DNA of 64,000 nt from Escherichia coli (GTDB lineage: Bacteria > Pseudomonadota > Gammaproteobacteria > Enterobacterales > Enterobacteriaceae). The stretch is from assembly GCF_965641715.1 (NCBI RefSeq), contig NZ_OZ282453.1; one strand, given 5' to 3'. Positions 19,256 to 60,968 of the stretch are shown in pieces (within the stretch, counting starts at the first letter, position 1; every line of letters starts with the position of its first letter). Both the position numbers and the translations under genes were made by a program. The notes under the pieces were generated by a model. That model made no database searches and was not told the DNA's origin. It saw only the letters and a list, made by a program, of their open reading frames with translations.

Positions 19256-21429
<2,174 letters not shown>

Positions 21430-21527
21430 TACGTATCCTTATACCTGAAATCTTCGCAAGTATGCCTGGCCGCGAGATTATGGCACACTTGTCCGGTTAA
21501 CTCTCGTCTCATACAGGTAACACAAAC

Positions 21528-21572
21528 GTGAAAATCCTTGTTGATGAAAAAAATGATGACTTAATTTATTGA
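21528..21572 (+). pseudogene. pdxB: Orphaned native 5' end of pdxB (GTG + 7 native codons, then phage sequence, stop after 14 codons)
   Basis: GTG AAA ATC CTT GTT GAT GAA = MKILVDE, the PdxB N-terminus. It continues into prophage DNA (KNDDLIY*). Confidence 0.75.
21531..21550. repeat. Prophage attachment-site core, ogr/cargo-proximal copy
   Basis: AAAATCCTTGTTGATGAAAA is identical to 57944-57963, and the two copies bracket every phage gene. Confidence 0.8.
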
Positions 21573-21625
21573 TGTAAAAGGATTTATGTCAGCGCGTGTC
21601 CACGCAGTGACCACATTTTCGAGTT

Positions 21626-21669
21626 ACAGATAACACAAAGCCCGTTTTCACGGGCTTTGTGTTATCTGT
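21626..21669. terminator. 19-bp perfect hairpin (bidirectional terminator/insulator)
   Basis: ACAGATAACACAAAGCCCG-TTTTCA-CGGGCTTTGTGTTATCTGT. It lies just downstream of the 297-aa gene (minus strand) and of the pdxB stub (plus strand). Confidence 0.7.
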
Positions 21670-21696
21670 AATTGTGGCTAAGCCACATGATTTATA

Positions 21697-22590
21697 CTAT
21701 TTCCAGTTACAAGCAGATTGAAGCGGTTTTAGCGCGTTTGACAGGCCGTTTAAATTGAAAGTTGCACTTACGGGGCTCTCATTATAAGGCGTTATTTTTG
21801 TATACATTTTGCTTGAGTTGGCTAGTTTTCGGATGAAATCAATGTCATTACCTTTATAAAAAACAGCCTTTGTATCTGTAGATACTAGCCAGTTTCGCTC
21901 AACTGCTTTCTGTTTATCAAGGCGATAAAGCATGCTGGTTTGTTCAAGGCCTAAATATACATCCCAACTAAGAAATACTTCGGTTTTCTTTTCTCGGCAA
22001 GCTATAAACAGAGTAGGAGTAACCGCTTCTCCAAATGGAGTTCTGATATAATCATCACTTTCTAACGATAAAATTACATTTTTCGAATCATCAATTGGCG
22101 ATGTAGTAATGGATGTGTGCCATTTTCCTACATCTGTGGCTTTCTCTAATTTTGATTCAGCTTGAACGGCTTTATCCTGTGGGAATAGTTTATCGTAGCA
22201 GTTTAGTCTGGCTTCTTTATCATTTTCTGCACGACATTTAGATATCTCAGAAAGATTTGGTTGCTGAGCCTCTGTTGTTACTGGCTTTTCCGTTTTAGAT
22301 TTTGAGTTTACAGATGGAATAAATGTTGGAGAAAAGAAACGATCATAACAAGATAAACGTCTATCATCATCTTTCTCATCAGGGCATTGATCTCTGCTTT
22401 CGAATTTTTCAGCAACTTTCGTTCGAGTCGGTTGTATTGACTTATCGTAACAAGAAAGTCTGTCTTTATTATTTTCTATTGCTCGGCACTGGAGTACTGC
22501 ATTGAAGTTCTTATGTTCAGTTGCTGCGTGAACAGGCAGTACACTAATTGATAAAAATGATGCGCCTATAGAAAAAATTATATTTTTCAT
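21697..22590 (-). CDS. Secreted protein with three N-terminal C-x11-C / RLxCYD modules and a VasI/TagO-like C-terminal domain (function unknown)
   Basis: 297-aa ORF with signal peptide MKNIIFSIGASFLSISVLPVHA. The repeats are CRAIENNKDRLSCYDK, CPDEKDDDRRLSCYDR and CRAENDKEARLNCYDK. It sits in an AT-rich prophage-end moron. Confidence 0.7.
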   Translation of the reverse strand: MKNIIFSIGASFLSISVLPVHAATEHKNFNAVLQCRAIENNKDRLSCYDKSIQPTRTKVAEKFESRDQCPDEKDDDRRLSCYDRFFSPTFIPSVNSKSKTEKPVTTEAQQPNLSEISKCRAENDKEARLNCYDKLFPQDKAVQAESKLEKATDVGKWHTSITTSPIDDSKNVILSLESDDYIRTPFGEAVTPTLFIACREKKTEVFLSWDVYLGLEQTSMLYRLDKQKAVERNWLVSTDTKAVFYKGNDIDFIRKLANSSKMYTKITPYNESPVSATFNLNGLSNALKPLQSACNWK

Positions 22591-22594
22591 TTTA

Positions 22595-22927
22595 TTATCC
22601 CTTTGGTTTAGTAAGAAATACTAAAATTCCGATAATGATATCGCCAATAACCCATAAGCTTCCAATGGTAATTAAACCTAAGCCTGTACCAATAACTGCA
22701 CCGGCTTTTTCAGCATCGGATGTGGCATTATTTATTATTTCACTAGTGCCACCTAGTCCAACTAAAAGCGTATAGATCATAAAAATATTAAATAATATAA
22801 AAACCCACTTAATGATCCGTCCAAAAAATGAACGCTTAAGTTTTTGTAGTTGTTTACCACAAGCAGGGCAATACAATGCTGAATCGCTCACCTCTTTCTG
22901 GCATTCAGGACATTTGATTAATGCCAT
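22595..22927 (-). CDS. Zinc-ribbon membrane protein (function unknown)
   Basis: 110-aa ORF with CPEC-x10-CPAC at the N-terminus and two hydrophobic helices. AGGAGG lies 8 nt before the ATG, and the stop is 4 nt from the next gene. Confidence 0.7.
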   Translation of the reverse strand: MALIKCPECQKEVSDSALYCPACGKQLQKLKRSFFGRIIKWVFILFNIFMIYTLLVGLGGTSEIINNATSDAEKAGAVIGTGLGLITIGSLWVIGDIIIGILVFLTKPKG

Positions 22928-26841: not shown

Positions 26842-27207
26842 ATGAAAGAGACGAAAAACATCGATACCGAAAACACGGTAGTTACTGACACTGTGAAAGA
26901 AACCAGTGAGCGTGGCGTAAAACTTACCCAACCAATTGAGCGAGGCGGCGAAAAAATCACGTATGTGGAGATCACCGGGGCTATTGAGCAGGCTGGATCT
27001 CTGCGAGATTTGTCGCTGTCTGATGTGCTGAATCTGAAAGCGGAATCCATGTTTACGCTGCTGTCACGCGTGACATCACCGCGACTGGATGAAGTGACGA
27101 TCAAAAAAATGGCATCCCGTGACTTTATTCAGTTATGTGTGGTTGCCGTAAATTTTTTGAGCGGTGCGGACTCTGGCGGGAAGAACGAACAGGCGACGGA
27201 AGCCTGA
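26842..27207 (+). CDS. Tail assembly chaperone gpE
   Basis: 121-aa ORF between the tube and tape-measure genes. It contains the slippery heptamer. Confidence 0.85.
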   Translation: MKETKNIDTENTVVTDTVKETSERGVKLTQPIERGGEKITYVEITGAIEQAGSLRDLSLSDVLNLKAESMFTLLSRVTSPRLDEVTIKKMASRDFIQLCVVAVNFLSGADSGGKNEQATEA

Positions 27208-47079: not shown

Positions 47080-47141
47080 GAAAATATGGCGGTGTTATTA
47101 CTGCCCAACAAGCCGTTATACTTACGTTATGGGCGTGCATA

Positions 47142-47498
47142 ATGGAAATGAATATGAAAACTGTAACTGATGATGAATTTCGTGAGAACCTGAGTGAAAT
47201 TCTGGATTACCTTTCTTCCGGTGGCAGTGTCGTTATCACGGCGCAGGGAGGGAAGGATGTTGTTCTTGCTGGTTCTGATCTTAGTCCTGAAATACGGGCT
47301 GTCCTTGGCAAAACCAAAAAACTGCGGGATCAAATAAACAAAATGAAGCAACCACTCTTAATAAATGCAGTGAGAGATCTGGAAAAACGTCATCCAGCTC
47401 TTGTCGCACAGAGAAAAAAAGGATTGTCTTTTGAAGATGCAATGAAGCGTACAAGAGAAAAACATGCGGATATCATTAAAAAGCTTGAGGATAACTGA
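47142..47498 (+). CDS. phd: Phd/YefM-family antitoxin with extended C-terminal region (start may be the ATG at 47154)
   Basis: MKTVTDDEFRENLSEILDYLSSGGSVVITAQGGKDVVL is a Phd/YefM-type N-domain. The stop overlaps the doc start (TGATG). Confidence 0.8.
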   Translation: MEMNMKTVTDDEFRENLSEILDYLSSGGSVVITAQGGKDVVLAGSDLSPEIRAVLGKTKKLRDQINKMKQPLLINAVRDLEKRHPALVAQRKKGLSFEDAMKRTREKHADIIKKLEDN

Positions 47499-47905
47499 TG
47501 GACATAGTGTTTTTGTCAAAAGAACAAGTAGAACGTATCCATGCTGAAACTTTACCCCAGAGCGGAAATGCCAATGACGGGCTACTTGAAGGTGCTTTAA
47601 ATCGCGTCAGGACACTACACTACTATGAAGGGGTTGATGATATTCATGCTCTGGCTGCTATGTATTTGATTGGTATAGCCAAGGCTCATGCCTTTCATGA
47701 TGGGAATAAACGCACAGCTTTTCAGGCTGCATCAATATTTTTAATGATGAACTCTTCCGAACTTTCAAACTCCCTGCTGCTGGTTAAATTAACGGTGTTT
47801 TCAGCAATGGGGATAGCTACCCTTGAGGAAGTTACCTTTGCTTTGAAATTGCTGTCTGATTATGGCAATGAATTAATCAGCGACTACGAAGAAGATTATA
47901 TTTAA
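47498..47905 (+). CDS. doc: Doc (death-on-curing) Fic-fold kinase toxin
   Basis: 135-aa ORF. HAFHDGNKRTA matches the Doc motif H-x-F-x-D-x-N-K-R-T. Confidence 0.88.
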   Translation: MDIVFLSKEQVERIHAETLPQSGNANDGLLEGALNRVRTLHYYEGVDDIHALAAMYLIGIAKAHAFHDGNKRTAFQAASIFLMMNSSELSNSLLLVKLTVFSAMGIATLEEVTFALKLLSDYGNELISDYEEDYI

Positions 47906-48071
47906 TGCTGGCATACTCTGTCGTGTTAAGACAACAGCCTTTGCGGAGACAGGGCAGGGTGCCAGACTTGCCCGCAGCGCGTCTGACATGAGCAGTTATT
48001 CATCTTTTTTATTGTTTTTCTCCATGCAGGGCGACAGTGCGCCCCGATAAAATTAAAAGCCGTCAAATTCG

Positions 48072-48407
48072 TCATTCATGCGTTTTTTCTTCATGGTCTG
48101 TCACTTCTCTCCTGATAACTTCATTGCACAAATCAACGCACTCATTGCAGATGTAAACAGACGGTCCGGCAATCACCTTTGTGACTTCGTACTGGGATTT
48201 ATTGCAGAAGCTGCAATAAATCGTCTCCTCACCTGAAGTCCATGTTTTGCTGGTTTCGCCAGACATCAGTTGTTTGAGGTCTTTTTCACGACGAAGAACT
48301 ATCTGGCCACATTCAGCTATTTTTTGGATGTTGACATTTTCTTCTTTCGCCAGCGCTTCCATCCGCTCAATCAGTCGCTGCGCTTTTTCTCTGTCAATGC
48401 GTTGCAT
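48072..48407 (-). CDS. Stand-alone ClpX N-terminal zinc-binding-domain (ZBD) protein with a coiled-coil N-terminus and no AAA+ module
   Basis: 111-aa [42 protein letters not shown] compares with E. coli Clp[46 protein letters not shown] acts as the SD. Confidence 0.85.
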
Positions 48408-48470
48408 TGTGTCCCCCTTGTTTATGTTCCCGGGTTAAAGTCATCAGGGCGGATGCGCCCTGATGTTGTG

Positions 48471-48786: not shown

Positions 48787-49746
48787 TTACTCCTTGTCCA
48801 TTGCGTACAGCCCATTAACCAGAGCAAACTGTGGCACCCCGTCCGCGATGAAAGTCGCATTAACTCCGCAGGCTTCGCGGATAGCGGGTGCCACAATCTC
48901 CGCCCCGCCACCGACAACCATCACCCGCCCGTAACCCGAAAAAACCGCCAGCGCGCGGATCACGCGTTGTTTCAGTGTTTCTTCCTTTTCACGAATAACC
49001 GCCATCAGGCTGGCGTAATGCGCGTCATTGTGGATGTGCTGGCGCAACCAGGCTTCATCATGGCGATGTTCGATAATGGTATTGGCGATGTGGTGACTGA
49101 TACGCATACCGTTAGTGGCCATCACCGACAGTACGGCATCGGCCATCAGGGAAACGCCTACGTGTGGATCGCAAAACACCTGGCTGATACCTGCCAGTTG
49201 CCCCTGAACCTTTGCCACATCCAGTGTGGTTCCGCCCAAATCCACAATCAGCAGGGATTCAAGCGGACTCATGTCAGCCAGTGCTTTAAAGCCAGCCGGA
49301 ATGGATTCAGGCATAACCCGTACGTTACGGATAGTGAATGTTTCGCCGTTCTGGTACTCCACCGGGCGCATAACGTTCGCTTTTTTGCGGCTGATGTTGG
49401 CCATGTCCGGCTGTGCGTTTGTGTCGAAATACTCGCTCAATGGCAGGGTGACAACCACATCCACCTCCTGTGGCGTGATGCCTGATTTGACCAGCGCGTG
49501 ATGAATGGCAATGACATTCACATCGCTGTACTGGTATTGCGTGTCGGTCGTCTGGACAAAGCGATCGCTGACCGGATCAAAACCATAGCGCACGCCATCA
49601 AGCATGTAGTTCGCGGGCTGCGAGCCACCGAACGGCGCAGACCATTCCGACTTGAAGCTGTTCGGGCTGATGGCGTTGCGGCGTTCGCCGTTCTCAGTCC
49701 ATGCCAGCTTGATGTTGGTGGAGCCGTCGTCGATACAAATTTTCAT
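48787..49746 (-). CDS. parM: ParM/StbA actin-like segregation ATPase
   Basis: 319-aa ORF. MKICIDDGSTNIKLAW...ISPNSFK...YQYSDVNVIAIHHAL...VMPESIPAG...DLGGTTLD...GGGAE is collinear with R1 ParM. Confidence 0.9.
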   Translation of the reverse strand: MKICIDDGSTNIKLAWTENGERRNAISPNSFKSEWSAPFGGSQPANYMLDGVRYGFDPVSDRFVQTTDTQYQYSDVNVIAIHHALVKSGITPQEVDVVVTLPLSEYFDTNAQPDMANISRKKANVMRPVEYQNGETFTIRNVRVMPESIPAGFKALADMSPLESLLIVDLGGTTLDVAKVQGQLAGISQVFCDPHVGVSLMADAVLSVMATNGMRISHHIANTIIEHRHDEAWLRQHIHNDAHYASLMAVIREKEETLKQRVIRALAVFSGYGRVMVVGGGAEIVAPAIREACGVNATFIADGVPQFALVNGLYAMDKE

Positions 49747-55938: not shown

Positions 55939-56226
55939 CTAAAGTCCCAGCCACAACAACCATGCGTCGCGGCGTTCTTTCGGTTGCTCAAAAAACGCTT
56001 TGCGCATGCCTTCGTTAAATGCTGGCAGATATACCCAGTTTTCTGATGCACGCGTCTTTACTGAACCTGGTTTCACAAAGTCAATTGTCGGTAGCTTTGC
56101 TGCGTCAATCATGGTTCTGACTGTGGATTCCTTGCGGCCGATCATCTTGGCGAATAGTTGATATGGCACCGCTTCAAGTGGATATGGTGCTACCTGAATG
56201 AACCCCCCAAGCTCTGATTCGCTCAT
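55939..56226 (-). CDS. cox: Cox-like excisionase / lytic-switch repressor
   Basis: 95-aa ORF. ...AVPYQLFAKMIGRKESTVRTMIDAAKLPTIDF...ENWVYLPAFNEGMRKAF...RDAWLLWLGL is collinear with P2 Cox (...AIPYQEFAKLIGKSTGAVRRMIDKGKLPVIDM...EYWVYLPAWNNGLKLAY...RDGWLMWLGL). Confidence 0.9.
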   Translation of the reverse strand: MSESELGGFIQVAPYPLEAVPYQLFAKMIGRKESTVRTMIDAAKLPTIDFVKPGSVKTRASENWVYLPAFNEGMRKAFFEQPKERRDAWLLWLGL

Positions 56227-56339: not shown

Positions 56340-56660
56340 ATGGCATCTTTGTCAAGCATGGGTGAAAAATTTCGCCTGATTCGTGAAGCAGAAGGTATGA
56401 CCCGCCAGGAGTTTGCGGATTGTGTTGGGCTGCCTTATGGGACGGTAACTAACTATGAGGTGAGGGGGAAGCAAGTAACAGAGGGTGCCTTACTTAAGGT
56501 TACGAAACACCCTAAATTTAAGAAGTATGCTTATTGGTTATCAACAGATGAAACGATGCCGGAGGTCGGGCAAATTTCTCCGGCTCTCTCTCTTGATGGT
56601 TCCTGCAATTCGGAGGGAGATCGCGTTTCAACCGAAAAAATCCAAAAATTATCCCGCTGA
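56340..56660 (+). CDS. Immunity repressor, P2 C-like (HTH)
   Basis: From MASLSSMGEKFRLIREAEGMTRQEFADCVGLPYGTVTNYE...GQISPAL, which parallels P2 C (...LSRQQLADLTGVPYGTLSYYE...GQIAPAL). It is divergent from cox. Confidence 0.88.
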   Translation: MASLSSMGEKFRLIREAEGMTRQEFADCVGLPYGTVTNYEVRGKQVTEGALLKVTKHPKFKKYAYWLSTDETMPEVGQISPALSLDGSCNSEGDRVSTEKIQKLSR

Positions 56661-56756: not shown

Positions 56757-57761
56757 ATGTCGATTAAGAAGCTCGAAGATGGTCGTTATTTGCTGGACAT
56801 CAGGCCGAACGGACGCAAGGGAAAGCGCGTGCGTAAGGTATTTGACAAAAAATCGGTAGCGGTGGCCACTGAACGCTACATCATGGCGAACGCTGAAAAG
56901 CGGGAATATATACAGGGCTACCGTGATCGTCGAACGCTAAATGATTTGCTTGAGTTGTGGTGGATGTATCACGGCCAGCACAGGCGTAAGGCGGAAGAAG
57001 ACCGAAAACAACTGCGCAACATAATCAATGAGCTTGGCGCTGATATGCAGGCTGTGGATCTTGATAAGCTGAAAATTATCGCGTGGCGTTCTCAAAAGAT
57101 AGCTGAAGGATTGAAACCGTCATCTGCTAACAGGTACATGAATCGGTTATCCGGAATGTTTACCGTGCTGAAAAAAATAGGTCTTTGGGATGCAGAACAT
57201 CCAGTAAGGGGAATTTCTATTCTTTATGTATCTCCACGAGAAATGGCGTTCCTGTCACAGAAGGAAGTGGCGCTATTGCTCGATACACTGGAGGGCGACT
57301 ACTGGCGTGTTGCGCTTTTGTGTTTAAGCACAGGGGCGCGCTGGAGTGAAGCTTGTAAGCTTCGTGGTGAACAGATAGTTCATAACCGTGTAACGTTTCT
57401 TGAAACCAAAAATGGCCGGAAGAGAACAGTGCCAATTTCGCAGGCAGTTTGTGAGGCGATCAAAACCAGAGAAACAGGCGGCTTGTTTGAGGTGAAGTAC
57501 CGGGAATTCTGCCTGGCGCTGAAAAGAGTTAAGCCCGACTTACCAAAAGGCCAGGCTGCACATGTGCTGCGGCATACGTTCGCCAGCCATTTTGTGATGA
57601 ACGGAGGAAACATTATTGCGCTTCAGAAGATTCTTGGTCACGCAACCATTCAGCAAACAATGGCATATGCGCATTTTGCACCGGATTACCTGCAGGATGC
57701 GGTGGCCCTTAATCCGCTGAAAGGTGGCGTAAGTGTCCACGCAGTGTCCACGGGGGATTAA
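56757..57761 (+). CDS. int: Tyrosine integrase, P2 Int-like
   Basis: MSIKKLEDGRYLLDIRPNGRKGKRVRKVFDKKS... through ...HVLRHTFASHF...LGH...YAHFAPDYLQDAVALNPL is collinear with P2 Int. Confidence 0.93.
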   Translation: MSIKKLEDGRYLLDIRPNGRKGKRVRKVFDKKSVAVATERYIMANAEKREYIQGYRDRRTLNDLLELWWMYHGQHRRKAEEDRKQLRNIINELGADMQAVDLDKLKIIAWRSQKIAEGLKPSSANRYMNRLSGMFTVLKKIGLWDAEHPVRGISILYVSPREMAFLSQKEVALLLDTLEGDYWRVALLCLSTGARWSEACKLRGEQIVHNRVTFLETKNGRKRTVPISQAVCEAIKTRETGGLFEVKYREFCLALKRVKPDLPKGQAAHVLRHTFASHFVMNGGNIIALQKILGHATIQQTMAYAHFAPDYLQDAVALNPLKGGVSVHAVSTGD

Positions 57762-57787: not shown

Positions 57788-57822
57788 GGGCGATACTGAA
57801 TAACAATTTTTCAGTATTGCCC
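57788..57822 (+). terminator. Hairpin downstream of int
   Basis: GGGCGATACTGAA-N9-TTCAGTATTGCCC (13-bp stem with one G-U pair). It has no T tract. Confidence 0.45.
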
Positions 57823-57919
57823 GTCTAAATGGTTATGTTGTTATCTGTATGATTATTAATGTTTTTTCAGATTAAACAGCAGTTTGCAAATGGGCGTTTG
57901 TTGATAAAGGAGCCTTAGA

Positions 57920-59077
57920 TTGTCAGAGACTGAAAAAGGGTTAAAAATCCTTGTTGATGAAAATATGCCTTATGCCCGCGACTTATTTAGCCGTTTGGGT
58001 GAGGTGACCGCGGTTCCCGGGCGTCCAATCCCCGTCGCTCAACTGGCAGACGCGGATGCGCTGATGGTGCGTTCGGTCACGAAAGTGAATGAATCTTTGC
58101 TGGCAGGAAAACCCATTAAATTTGTTGGCACTGCCACTGCGGGGACCGACCATGTCGATGAAGCATGGTTGAAGCAGGCGGGAATTGGTTTTTCCGCTGC
58201 ACCTGGCTGTAATGCGATTGCGGTGGTGGAATATGTTTTCTCCTCCCTGCTGATGCTTGCCGAACGCGATGGATTTTCACTGCACGAGCGTACCGTGGGG
58301 ATCGTGGGCGTTGGTAATGTTGGTCGGCGTTTACAGGCACGACTGGAAGCGTTAGGGATTAAAACCTTGCTTTGCGATCCGCCTCGCGCTGACCGTGGGG
58401 ATGAGGGTGATTTCCGCTCGCTGGATGAATTAGTTCAGCATGCGGATATTCTGACTTTCCATACGCCACTTTTCAAAGACGGGCCGTACAAAACGCTGCA
58501 TCTGGCGGATGAAAAACTGATCCGTAACCTGAAGCCAGGAGCGATTCTGATTAACGCCTGCCGTGGCGCAGTCGTCGATAATACCGCGCTGCTGACCTGC
58601 CTGAATGAAGGCCAGAAGTTAAGCGTAGTGCTGGATGTCTGGGAAGGCGAACCGGAACTTAACGTGGAGTTGCTGACAAAAGTGGATATCGGCACGCCGC
58701 ATATTGCAGGCTATACCCTGGAAGGTAAAGCACGCGGTACTACGCAAGTGTTTGAAGCCTATAGCAAGTTTATTGGGCATGAACAGCACGTTGCGCTGGA
58801 TACATTACTACCCGCGCCAGAGTTTGGTCGCATTACACTGCATGGCCCGCTCGATCAACCGACGCTGAAAAGGCTGGTGCATTTGGTGTATGATGTGCGC
58901 CGCGATGACGCACCGCTGCGTAAAGTCGCCGGGATACCGGGTGAGTTCGATAAACTGCGCAAAAACTATCTTGAGCGCCGTGAATGGTCATCTCTGTATG
59001 TAATTTGTGATGACGCCAGTGCGGCATCATTGCTGTGTAAACTGGGTTTTAACGCCGTTCATCATCCGGCACGTTAA
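57920..59077 (+). CDS. pdxB: Erythronate-4-phosphate dehydrogenase PdxB with phage-derived 5' end (TTG start; an alternative internal ATG is at 57965)
   Basis: From [21 protein letters not shown] onward the sequence is canonical PdxB. The upstream MSETEKGL plus AAGGAG (57907-57912) come from the prophage arm. Confidence 0.88.
57944..57963. repeat. Prophage attachment-site core, int-proximal copy (inside pdxB codons)
   Basis: AAAATCCTTGTTGATGAAAA is identical to 21531-21550. Confidence 0.8.
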
Positions 59078-59142: not shown

Positions 59143-60156
59143 ATGTCTGAAGGCTGGAACATTGCCGTCCTGGGCGCAACTGGCGCTGTGGGCGAAGCCC
59201 TGCTTGAAACGCTGGCTGAACGTCAGTTCCCGGTTGGGGAAATTTATGCACTGGCACGTAACGAAAGCGCAGGCGAACAACTGCGCTTTGGTGGTAAGAC
59301 AATCACCGTGCAGGATGCTGCTGAATTCGACTGGACGCAGGCGCAGCTGGCATTTTTTGTCGCAGGCAAAGAAGCTACCGCTGCCTGGGTTGAAGAAGCG
59401 ACCAACTCAGGTTGCCTGGTGATCGACAGCAGCGGACTGTTTGCTCTCGAACCCGACGTACCGCTGGTGGTGCCGGAAGTAAACCCGTTTGTACTGACCG
59501 ATTACCGCAACCGGAATGTCATCGCCGTACCGGACAGTCTGACCAGTCAGTTGCTGGCGGCACTGAAACCGTTAATCGATCAGGGCGGTTTATCACGTAT
59601 CAGCGTTACCAGCCTGATTTCAGCCTCCGCCCAGGGCAAAAAAGCGGTCGATGCGTTAGCGGGGCAGAGTGCGAAATTGCTCAACGGCATTCCGATTGAC
59701 GAAGAAGATTTCTTCGGGCGTCAGCTGGCGTTCAACATGCTGCCGTTACTGCCGGATAGCGAAGGTAGCGTGCGTGAAGAACGTCGTATCGTTGACGAAG
59801 TACGCAAAATCCTGCAGGACGAAGGGCTGATGATTTCGGCAAGCGTCGTCCAGGCACCGGTATTCTACGGTCATGCCCAGATGGTCAACTTTGAAGCACT
59901 GCGTCCGCTGGCGGCAGAAGAAGCGCGTGATGCGTTTTCTCAGGGCGAAGATATTGTGCTCTCTGAAGAGAACGAATTCCCGACTCAGGTAGGGGATGCT
60001 TCGGGTACGCCGCATCTTTCTGTTGGCTGTGTGCGTAATGACTACGGTATGCCGGAGCAAGTCCAGTTCTGGTCGGTGGCCGATAACGTTCGCTTTGGCG
60101 GCGCGCTGATGGCAGTAAAAATCGCCGAGAAACTGGTGCAGGAGTATCTGTACTAA
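59143..60156 (+). CDS. usg: USG-1 protein (aspartate-semialdehyde dehydrogenase paralogue)
   Basis: 337-aa ORF starting [22 protein letters not shown], upstream of truA. Confidence 0.92.
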
Positions 60157-60968
60157 TGTCCGACCAGCAACAACCGCCAGTTTATAAAATTGCGCTGGGC
60201 ATTGAGTACGACGGCAGTAGGTATTACGGCTGGCAACGGCAGAATGAAGTCCGCAGTGTGCAGGAGAAGCTGGAAAAGGCGCTCTCCCAGGTGGCGAACG
60301 AACCGATCACCGTCTTCTGCGCCGGGCGTACTGACGCAGGGGTACACGGTACCGGGCAGGTGGTGCATTTCGAAACAACCGCGCAGCGCAAAGACGCTGC
60401 GTGGACGTTGGGCGTAAATGCGAATTTACCTGGTGACATCGCCGTGCGTTGGGTTAAAGCTGTACCTGATGATTTTCATGCCCGATTTAGCGCCACGGCT
60501 CGCCGTTATCGCTACATCATCTACAATCATCGGCTGCGCCCGGCGGTACTGAGTAAAGGGGTAACCCATTTTTACGAACCGCTGGACGCTGAACGGATGC
60601 ATCGGGCTGCGCAATGCTTGCTGGGCGAGAATGATTTCACCTCGTTCCGTGCGGTGCAGTGCCAGTCCCGAACCCCGTGGCGCAACGTTATGCATATTAA
60701 TGTCACGCGTCACGGTCCTTATGTGGTGGTTGATATCAAAGCGAATGCCTTTGTACATCATATGGTCAGGAATATTGTCGGCAGCCTGATGGAAGTCGGT
60801 GCCCACAACCAGCCGGAGAGCTGGATAGCAGAGTTGCTGGCGGCAAAGGACAGAACGCTGGCGGCAGCAACGGCAAAAGCGGAAGGGCTGTATCTGGTCG
60901 CGGTGGATTACCCTGACCGGTATGATCTTCCAAAACCGCCAATGGGCCCGCTATTTCTGGCGGACTAA
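60156..60968 (+). CDS. truA: tRNA pseudouridine(38-40) synthase TruA
   Basis: 270-aa ORF containing [20 protein letters not shown] and the catalytic GRTDAGVH motif. Confidence 0.95.

Follow-up and report, generated by a model that had tools for sequence, protein, structure and literature searches.

The temperate Citrobacter rodentium phage ΦSM is the closest described relative of the element that we analyse here, a P2-like prophage inserted in the pdxB gene of Escherichia coli. Its attachment (att) site in E. coli K-12 was determined by RP-PCR and Sanger sequencing and was placed 6 bp into pdxB, at ATCCTTGTTGATGAAAA (Magaziner et al., 2019, J Bacteriol 201:e00638-18; PMC6456863). The same study described a TTG in frame with the truncated gene and 41 bp upstream of it, with an AAGGAG at −7, proposed a promoter in the phage arm with TAAAGG as the −10 box and TTGCAA as the −35 box, and reported that MG1655(ΦSM) grows in M9 glucose like the wild type, while pdxB mutants are auxotrophic. 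In C. rodentium, ΦSM was found inside a ‘traF-domain’ gene with an identical attB (PMC6456863). Our search of the literature for further phages that use pdxB as their att site returned only this paper. Two other prophages are known at the 5′ end of a host gene. The rac prophage of E. coli K-12 lies in ttcA, where it gives the TtcA of the lysogen an N-terminus of phage origin; excision restores the ancestral one (Liu et al., 2015, Sci Rep 5:16074; PMC4632033). Gifsy-1 occupies lepA of Salmonella Typhimurium, with its att site within the first 123 bp of the gene (PMC13090387), and according to a statement cited in PMC4632033 the gene is functional in the lysogen. Here we studied a 64,000-nucleotide (nt) stretch of E. 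coli DNA (RefSeq assembly GCF_965641715.1, contig NZ_OZ282453.1; hereafter the window) in which a prophage of the ΦSM type separates pdxB from its native start, and in which the phage arm very probably rebuilds that start.

An initial annotation of this DNA had proposed that the phage arm restores the ribosome-binding site, the start codon and the N-terminus of PdxB, and had added that phages targeting open reading frames (ORFs) usually regenerate the 3′ end. The proposal is an independent rediscovery of what was already known for ΦSM (PMC6456863, Fig. 4E). The general remark is fair, to which the 5′-end precedents of rac in ttcA and Gifsy-1 in lepA (PMC4632033) have to be added.

Results

The 20-nt direct repeat AAAATCCTTGTTGATGAAAA occurs exactly twice in the window, at positions 21531–21550 and 57944–57963, both times on the + strand. 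No copy is expected by chance, even when 2 mismatches are allowed, and the identity of 20 nt does not extend past either edge of the copies. The published 17-bp ΦSM core ATCCTTGTTGATGAAAA is contained in this repeat and is thus duplicated at both prophage ends, within the 5′ end of pdxB. At the left copy (attL) a GTG (21528) stands directly 5′ of the core and the frame reads MKILVDE before entering phage DNA as KNDDLIY-stop (codons GTG AAA ATC CTT GTT GAT GAA, followed by the foreign AAA AAT GAT GAC TTA ATT TAT TGA). The orphaned native start is reduced to a 14-codon stub, MKILVDEKNDDLIY-stop (21528–21572, + strand), and the native flk-pdxB intergenic promoter region (21430–21527) remains on this side of the prophage, next to the divergent neighbor flk (20434–21429, − strand). 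At the right copy (attR), which comprises pdxB codons 2–7 and 2 nt of codon 8, the frame goes on as AAT ATG CCT TAT GCC (NMPYARDLF), the body of pdxB. The att core therefore lies in the 5′ part of a host coding sequence, and this junction structure can be read directly from the DNA. Congruently with the initial annotation, whose coordinates all proved correct on re-reading of the sequence, the prophage sits within the first codons of pdxB with codons 2–8 as the att core, and the native promoter, ribosome-binding site and start codon at attL are displaced 36 kb from the gene body at attR.

To characterize the unoccupied site, we built a synthetic empty site of 600 nt, in which a single core connects the two flanks, and searched for it in complete E. 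coli genomes (n = 5426). The empty site was contiguous in 5122 of them, many at 100% identity, so that the GTG, the core and the rest of pdxB run on uninterrupted, as had been anticipated for the unlysogenised flk-pdxB junction. Its annotation shows divergent flk and pdxB, the latter with a GTG start and 378 amino acids (aa). The junction between int and pdxB was present in 302 genomes and the phage arm alone in 303, from many lineages, with O111, O145 and ETEC O6:H16 strains among the carriers; the arrangement is thus common in E. coli. Since the empty-site and arm counts together cover essentially every genome, the element is the only one that uses this site in the species.

All of the DNA between the repeats corresponds to a P2-like phage. 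The 36.4-kb prophage (21551–57943) is 95.8% identical to ΦSM (Citrobacter phage Shae_phiSM, OR565851.1) over 34,080 of 36,433 nt (94%), a similarity that assigns it to the ΦSM type of Xuanwuvirus (Peduoviridae). The P2 gene order adjoins attR, with cox (55939–56226) on the − strand followed by C (56340–56660) and int (56757–57761) on the + strand, and the three ORFs are intact in the window. The product of C is the C-type immunity repressor, identified through the RefSeq annotation of an identical lysogen and the ‘C protein’ of ΦSM, and C is the first gene of a C-int operon that reads toward attR and pdxB. The product of int is a tyrosine integrase (Pfam Int_N and Phage_integrase; ‘phage integrase’ in RefSeq). 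With a tyrosine integrase and a C/Cox switch next to the att site, and with the ΦSM core at both ends, the element belongs to the ΦSM-type Xuanwuvirus group at pdxB by every sequence-level feature that defines the group. The attP reconstructed from the right end, the core and the left end of the prophage is contiguous in phage P88_4B11 (NC_049391.1; 100% coverage, 91.6% identity) and in one metagenome contig. The P88_4B11 core (about 26870–26890) differs from the E. coli attB by a single mismatch, GAGG for GATG; in this phage the P′ arm diverges strongly straight after the core and the P arm is nearly identical.

At attR, the phage arm carries the Shine-Dalgarno (SD) sequence AAGGAG (57907–57912, + strand), also described for ΦSM, 7 nt 5′ of a TTG (57920) that is in frame with pdxB. 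The closest in-frame stop upstream is a TAA at 57905, and no stop separates the TTG from the gene body. The predicted chimeric coding sequence (57920–59077, + strand) encodes 385 aa, the phage-derived MSETEKGL followed by native residues 2–378. Both the signals and the chimeric protein had been foreseen in the initial annotation, and this rebuilding of the SD, the start and the N-terminus matches the published description for ΦSM (PMC6456863). An alternative start is offered by the internal ATG of native Met9 (57965–57967, + strand; 370 aa), the one found in most RefSeq lysogen annotations. In a spread sample of 60 RefSeq lysogens, the PGAP annotation sets the start of pdxB at the TTG in 17 (1158 nt, 385 aa; for example WP_001705257.1) and at the Met9 ATG in 43 (1113 nt, 370 aa). 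The exact 385-aa protein is present on 89 public contigs and the 370-aa form also appears in public collections. A consensus SD at optimal spacing precedes the TTG, and none precedes the Met9 ATG. Because the Pfam 2-Hacid_dh catalytic-domain model begins at ILV of KILVDE, a Met9 start would delete the first conserved strand; moreover, the PdxB enzymes of Salmonella and Vibrio share the conserved segment KIL(V/I)DENMPYA. A short N-terminal extension seems compatible with folding, since the crystallised PdxB constructs 3OET and 5DT9 carry 3–6 extra N-terminal residues. RNA structure around the SD and the TTG was not significant (z −1.56). The evidence favors the TTG as the start of pdxB in lysogens. 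In practical terms, the gene is annotated there with two starts, of which the commoner, Met9, is probably an annotation error.

Next, we compared 28 arms, taken from genomes of E. coli and of phages and from metagenomes, which represent 17 distinct sequences. The SD, the TTG and the frame are invariant across the 17. Variable positions number 23 of 143 in the stretch from the int stop to the SD and 2 of 39 in the stretch from the SD to the core, a difference without significance (Fisher p = 0.11); the only two changes in the latter segment are a C>A in the spacer and a synonymous AAA>AAG, and the three indels observed among the arms all precede the SD. The low variability of the SD-TTG block is suggestive. 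When the arm was shuffled preserving dinucleotides, an SD with an open in-frame start arose in 1.8% of the shuffles and any open in-frame start in 40%. In all the sampled lysogens pdxB was full length and intact. In E. coli 2014C-3011 (NZ_CP027591.1, contig piece 1–1362) an IS3-family element truncates the N-terminus of int, which would lock this prophage in, and both the arm and a full-length pdxB are kept. We also looked for diverged relatives of the integrase in a set with a single genome for each species (54 loci, ≤82% identity) and at 80 loci of IMG/VR. None of the relatives at ≤82% identity adjoins pdxB, and most of the IMG/VR contigs end at the int stop codon. The absence of such relatives next to pdxB indicates that the specificity for this gene is recent and narrow.

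We then considered where the transcription of pdxB could originate in the lysogen. Consensus and weight-matrix scans revealed no convincing promoter in 57823–57906, and the consensus scan detected no terminator-like site between int and pdxB. The weight-matrix candidates upstream of the SD score 7.6–8.4, where the background of the window is 7.15 ± 1.67; the native pdxB promoter region gives 7.8 for its best match, no better than these candidates, so the method has little power here. The hairpin reported after int in the initial annotation (57788–57822, + strand) does exist, with a 13-bp stem, a ΔG of −22.7 kcal/mol and a z of −4.8, but it is followed by GUCUAAAUGG, with no U-tract on the + strand, and is not a canonical intrinsic terminator. 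It folds better as + strand RNA (−22.7 vs. −18.4 kcal/mol on the − strand). The stem contains a G-U pair, and a natural C>T variant at 57791 makes a second one, which on the other strand is an A-C mismatch. The folding suggests that the hairpin works at the level of the int mRNA, in its stability or processing, rather than as a site in the DNA or as a terminator for the − strand. Lysogens of P2-type phages transcribe C and int together from Pc. Given that the hairpin has no U-tract and that no convincing promoter was found, read-through from the C-int operon is more plausible than an arm promoter. We infer that it is the most likely source of pdxB transcription, with a weak arm promoter as a live alternative.

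At the opposite end of the prophage, a 24-bp perfect hairpin (21622–21673; ΔG −41.7 kcal/mol, z −10.8) has an inner GC stem followed by TTTGTGTT on both strands and is a likely bidirectional terminator. It would likely stop the transcripts from the orphaned pdxB promoter, insulating the prophage from them. An 11-nt motif, TGTTATCTGTA, is found in the P arm (57839–57849) and also in both stem halves of this P′ terminator (21625–21635 and 21660–21670); either a protein, perhaps Cox or IHF, may bind there or the recurrence is coincidental. Downstream of pdxB, usg and truA (59143–60968, + strand; called from the ORFs, usg being annotated in RefSeq) are likewise cut off from their native upstream promoter by the prophage; Arps and Winkler are said to have placed both genes in an operon with pdxB in 1987.

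The arms also carry tandem direct repeats. The one in the P arm, GTGTCCAC-GCA-GTGTCCAC (57733–57751, + strand), lies in the 3′ end of int, and a match in direct orientation, GTGTCCAC-GCA-GTGACCAC, is located in the P′ arm (21596–21614, + strand). The repeat common to both arms is GTGTCCAC-GCA-GTG(T/A)CCAC. The attP of P2 has tandem arm-type Int sites in its arms, and we regard the two repeats as candidate pairs of Int arm-type binding sites.

In the contig IMGVR_UViG_2724678986_000024 (3107–4594), a gene other than pdxB is joined in frame to the same int, arm and core. The fusion falls in the middle of a UvrD/REP helicase (Pfam, N-terminal domain model positions 215–264), at its motif II, ILVDEYQD. 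It looks like a secondary attB, chosen because the nucleotides that encode this motif are those of pdxB codons 3–7, and there the arm would drive an N-terminally truncated helicase fragment. The case parallels that of ΦSM in the ‘traF-domain’ gene of C. rodentium (PMC6456863).

Other genes of the prophage include a 1.3-kb cargo segment (47081–48415) that is missing from ΦSM, with a Phd/YefM-like antitoxin (47142–47498), a Fic/Doc-family toxin (47498–47905) and a small ClpX-type C4 zinc-finger protein (48072–48407, − strand); the segment is strain-specific. On the attL side, a second cargo (21697–22927, − strand) encodes a 297-aa protein with a type VI secretion system VasI domain (PF11319) and a 110-aa zinc-ribbon protein, named ‘TagO’ in the ΦSM annotation. 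The two genes are transcribed toward the att core, with the strong bidirectional terminator in between. A ParM-type actin-like segregation protein is encoded at 48787–49746 (− strand), and in ΦSM and P88_4B11 a small partner gene is annotated beside it. This hints that the phage family may at some stage be kept or segregated as a plasmid.

Discussion

We consider it very probable that a ΦSM-type phage integrated at pdxB codons 2–8, that the SD and the TTG of its arm rebuild a 385-aa PdxB, and that transcription comes, most likely, from C-int read-through. According to this model, a P2-like temperate phage of the ΦSM type would integrate by means of its tyrosine integrase at a 17–20-bp core equivalent to these codons. 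The native promoter and the GTG would stay at attL and drive only the 14-codon stub, which ends before the strong terminator. At attR, the integrase-proximal arm would provide the AAGGAG, the 7-nt spacer, the TTG and, in the frame of the duplicated core, seven additional codons, and the lysogen would produce a 385-aa PdxB that retains every native residue after Met1. Transcription would be sustained by read-through from the lysogenically active C-int operon, possibly with the contribution of a weak arm promoter. From the sequence we infer that the TTG is the codon used in the lysogen.

Several observations weigh against this model. Between int and the SD, the consensus scan detected nothing resembling a sigma-70 site on the + strand. 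The arm’s best sigma-70-like match, TTGTCA-17-AAAAAT (57920–57948, + strand; in the top 2% of the window’s 235-nt bins), has the TTG codon itself as its −35 box and would start transcription 3′ of both the SD and the TTG. As for the published promoter, its TTGCAA (57884–57889) and TAAAGG (57905–57910) are separated by a 15-nt spacer, the −10 lacks the terminal T and the predicted transcription start site (TSS), ~57916–57918, falls after the SD; since a −10 placed 15 nt from TTGCAA overlaps the SD, the promoter and the SD cannot both operate. Furthermore, the conserved SD-TTG block adjoins the core, so that recombination proteins could also constrain it, its lower variability is not significant, and most RefSeq annotations choose Met9. 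The TTGTCA-17-AAAAAT match could serve only an explanation in which PdxB starts at the Met9 ATG (57965) as a 370-aa protein expressed from this hybrid attR promoter, the SD and the TTG being irrelevant. Its rank in the window, the 43 of 60 lysogens annotated by PGAP in this way and the 370-aa entries in public databases agree with such a start. We nevertheless find it improbable: the −10 AAAAAT is weak, the ATG has no SD and its leader would be of only about 8–10 nt, the product would lose KILVDEN, a segment whose conservation reaches from E. coli to Vibrio and at which the Pfam catalytic-domain model begins, and the wild-type-like growth of ΦSM lysogens on minimal medium (PMC6456863) is hard to square with a truncated and poorly translated PdxB.

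The insertion might instead have silenced pdxB, with external vitamin B6 or a bypass covering the need and with an SD and a TTG that are there by chance or belong to a small phage ORF in attP. The displacement of the native promoter, ribosome-binding site and start codon by 36 kb, the lack of a clear promoter upstream of the SD, the 40% of shuffled arms that have some open in-frame start and the in-frame fusion of the same arm to an unrelated helicase gene, which would make the fusion itself a by-product of the core, are in line with this idea, to which we give very little credence. MG1655(ΦSM) grows without pyridoxine in M9 glucose like the wild type (PMC6456863), pdxB is intact in all the sampled lysogens, the decayed prophage included, an SD together with an open in-frame start appears in just 1.8% of the shuffles, and the arm is carried by 303 of the 5426 complete genomes, in many lineages. 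A different objection accepts the SD and the TTG, but assigns transcription to a dedicated constitutive promoter in the arm, so that pdxB would be uncoupled from prophage regulation. The candidates are TTGCCC-16-TGTTAT (57817–57844), CTAAAT-17-TATGAT (57825–57853) and the published TTGCAA/TAAAGG pair. Their weak scores resemble that of the native pdxB region, and strain 2014C-3011 keeps pdxB intact even though the IS3 element that truncates int separates it from C and Pc. However, these candidates are no better than the window background, the published pair has the short spacer and incomplete −10 described above, with a TSS predicted to lie within the SD or beyond it, much of 57849–57903 is variable among arms, and the IS3 element of 2014C-3011 reads in the same direction and could itself give read-through. 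A dedicated promoter is therefore a possibility that we take seriously but judge rather doubtful. An active-lysogeny or regulatory switch, such as that of the Listeria phage in comK, was also considered and rejected, given the complete ORF with SD and start at attR and the prototrophy of the lysogens (PMC6456863).

Assuming C-int read-through, we tentatively propose that pdxB, and probably also usg-truA, would be controlled in lysogens by read-through of the prophage immunity operon (Pc, C, int and the arm) rather than by the growth-rate-regulated host promoter, wiring vitamin B6 synthesis to lysogeny, and that the SD-TTG block would be kept by selection on host fitness and not on recombination. 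We see this as a speculative extension, with less in its favor than the rebuilding of the start. Carriers of this prophage family amount to ~5–6% of E. coli and, if the proposal is true, vitamin B6 synthesis in them would be tied to the lysogenic state.

The locus illustrates clearly how a phage can repair an interrupted gene from the 5′ side, a task that calls for translation and transcription signals, while repair from the 3′ side needs only a stop codon and a tail. To what was known, our sequence analysis adds the split in the annotation of the pdxB start, an apparent flaw in the published promoter model, an estimate of frequency and the idea of a coupling between pdxB and the immunity operon.

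The prophage resembles P2 in the order cox, C, int and attP, in the orientation of C and int toward the att site and in the tandem direct repeats of both arms, and its integrase gene shares 73.5% nt identity with P2 int over about 100 nt. The sites used by P2, such as locI, are intergenic. P2 is not known to rebuild a host gene, whereas the integrase clade described here is specific for the pdxB core. With ΦSM the prophage shares the phage type, the att core, the TTG and the AAGGAG; the arms differ at 3 bases, none of them in those elements. ΦSM in K-12 is a laboratory lysogen and the present one is natural, the identity between attL and attR is 20 nt here and 17 in the ΦSM report, and the 1.3-kb segment with the Phd/Doc pair and the ClpX-type zinc finger is found only here. 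The displaced native start is a GTG (21528), while an ATG is stated in PMC6456863; this and the overlap of the proposed −10 with the proposed SD are two inaccuracies of that paper. Like rac in ttcA, the prophage occupies the 5′ end of a host ORF and yields a variant protein with a phage-derived N-terminus. Nonetheless, rac is a lambdoid defective prophage with another integrase and another target gene, and its swap changes four residues and alters function, whereas the prophage in pdxB keeps all the native residues after Met1 and adds 7. Gifsy-1 is likewise lambdoid, with an integrase and a target unrelated to those described here, and what it has in common with the prophage in pdxB is an att site in the 5′ coding sequence of a host gene that is still functional in the lysogen.

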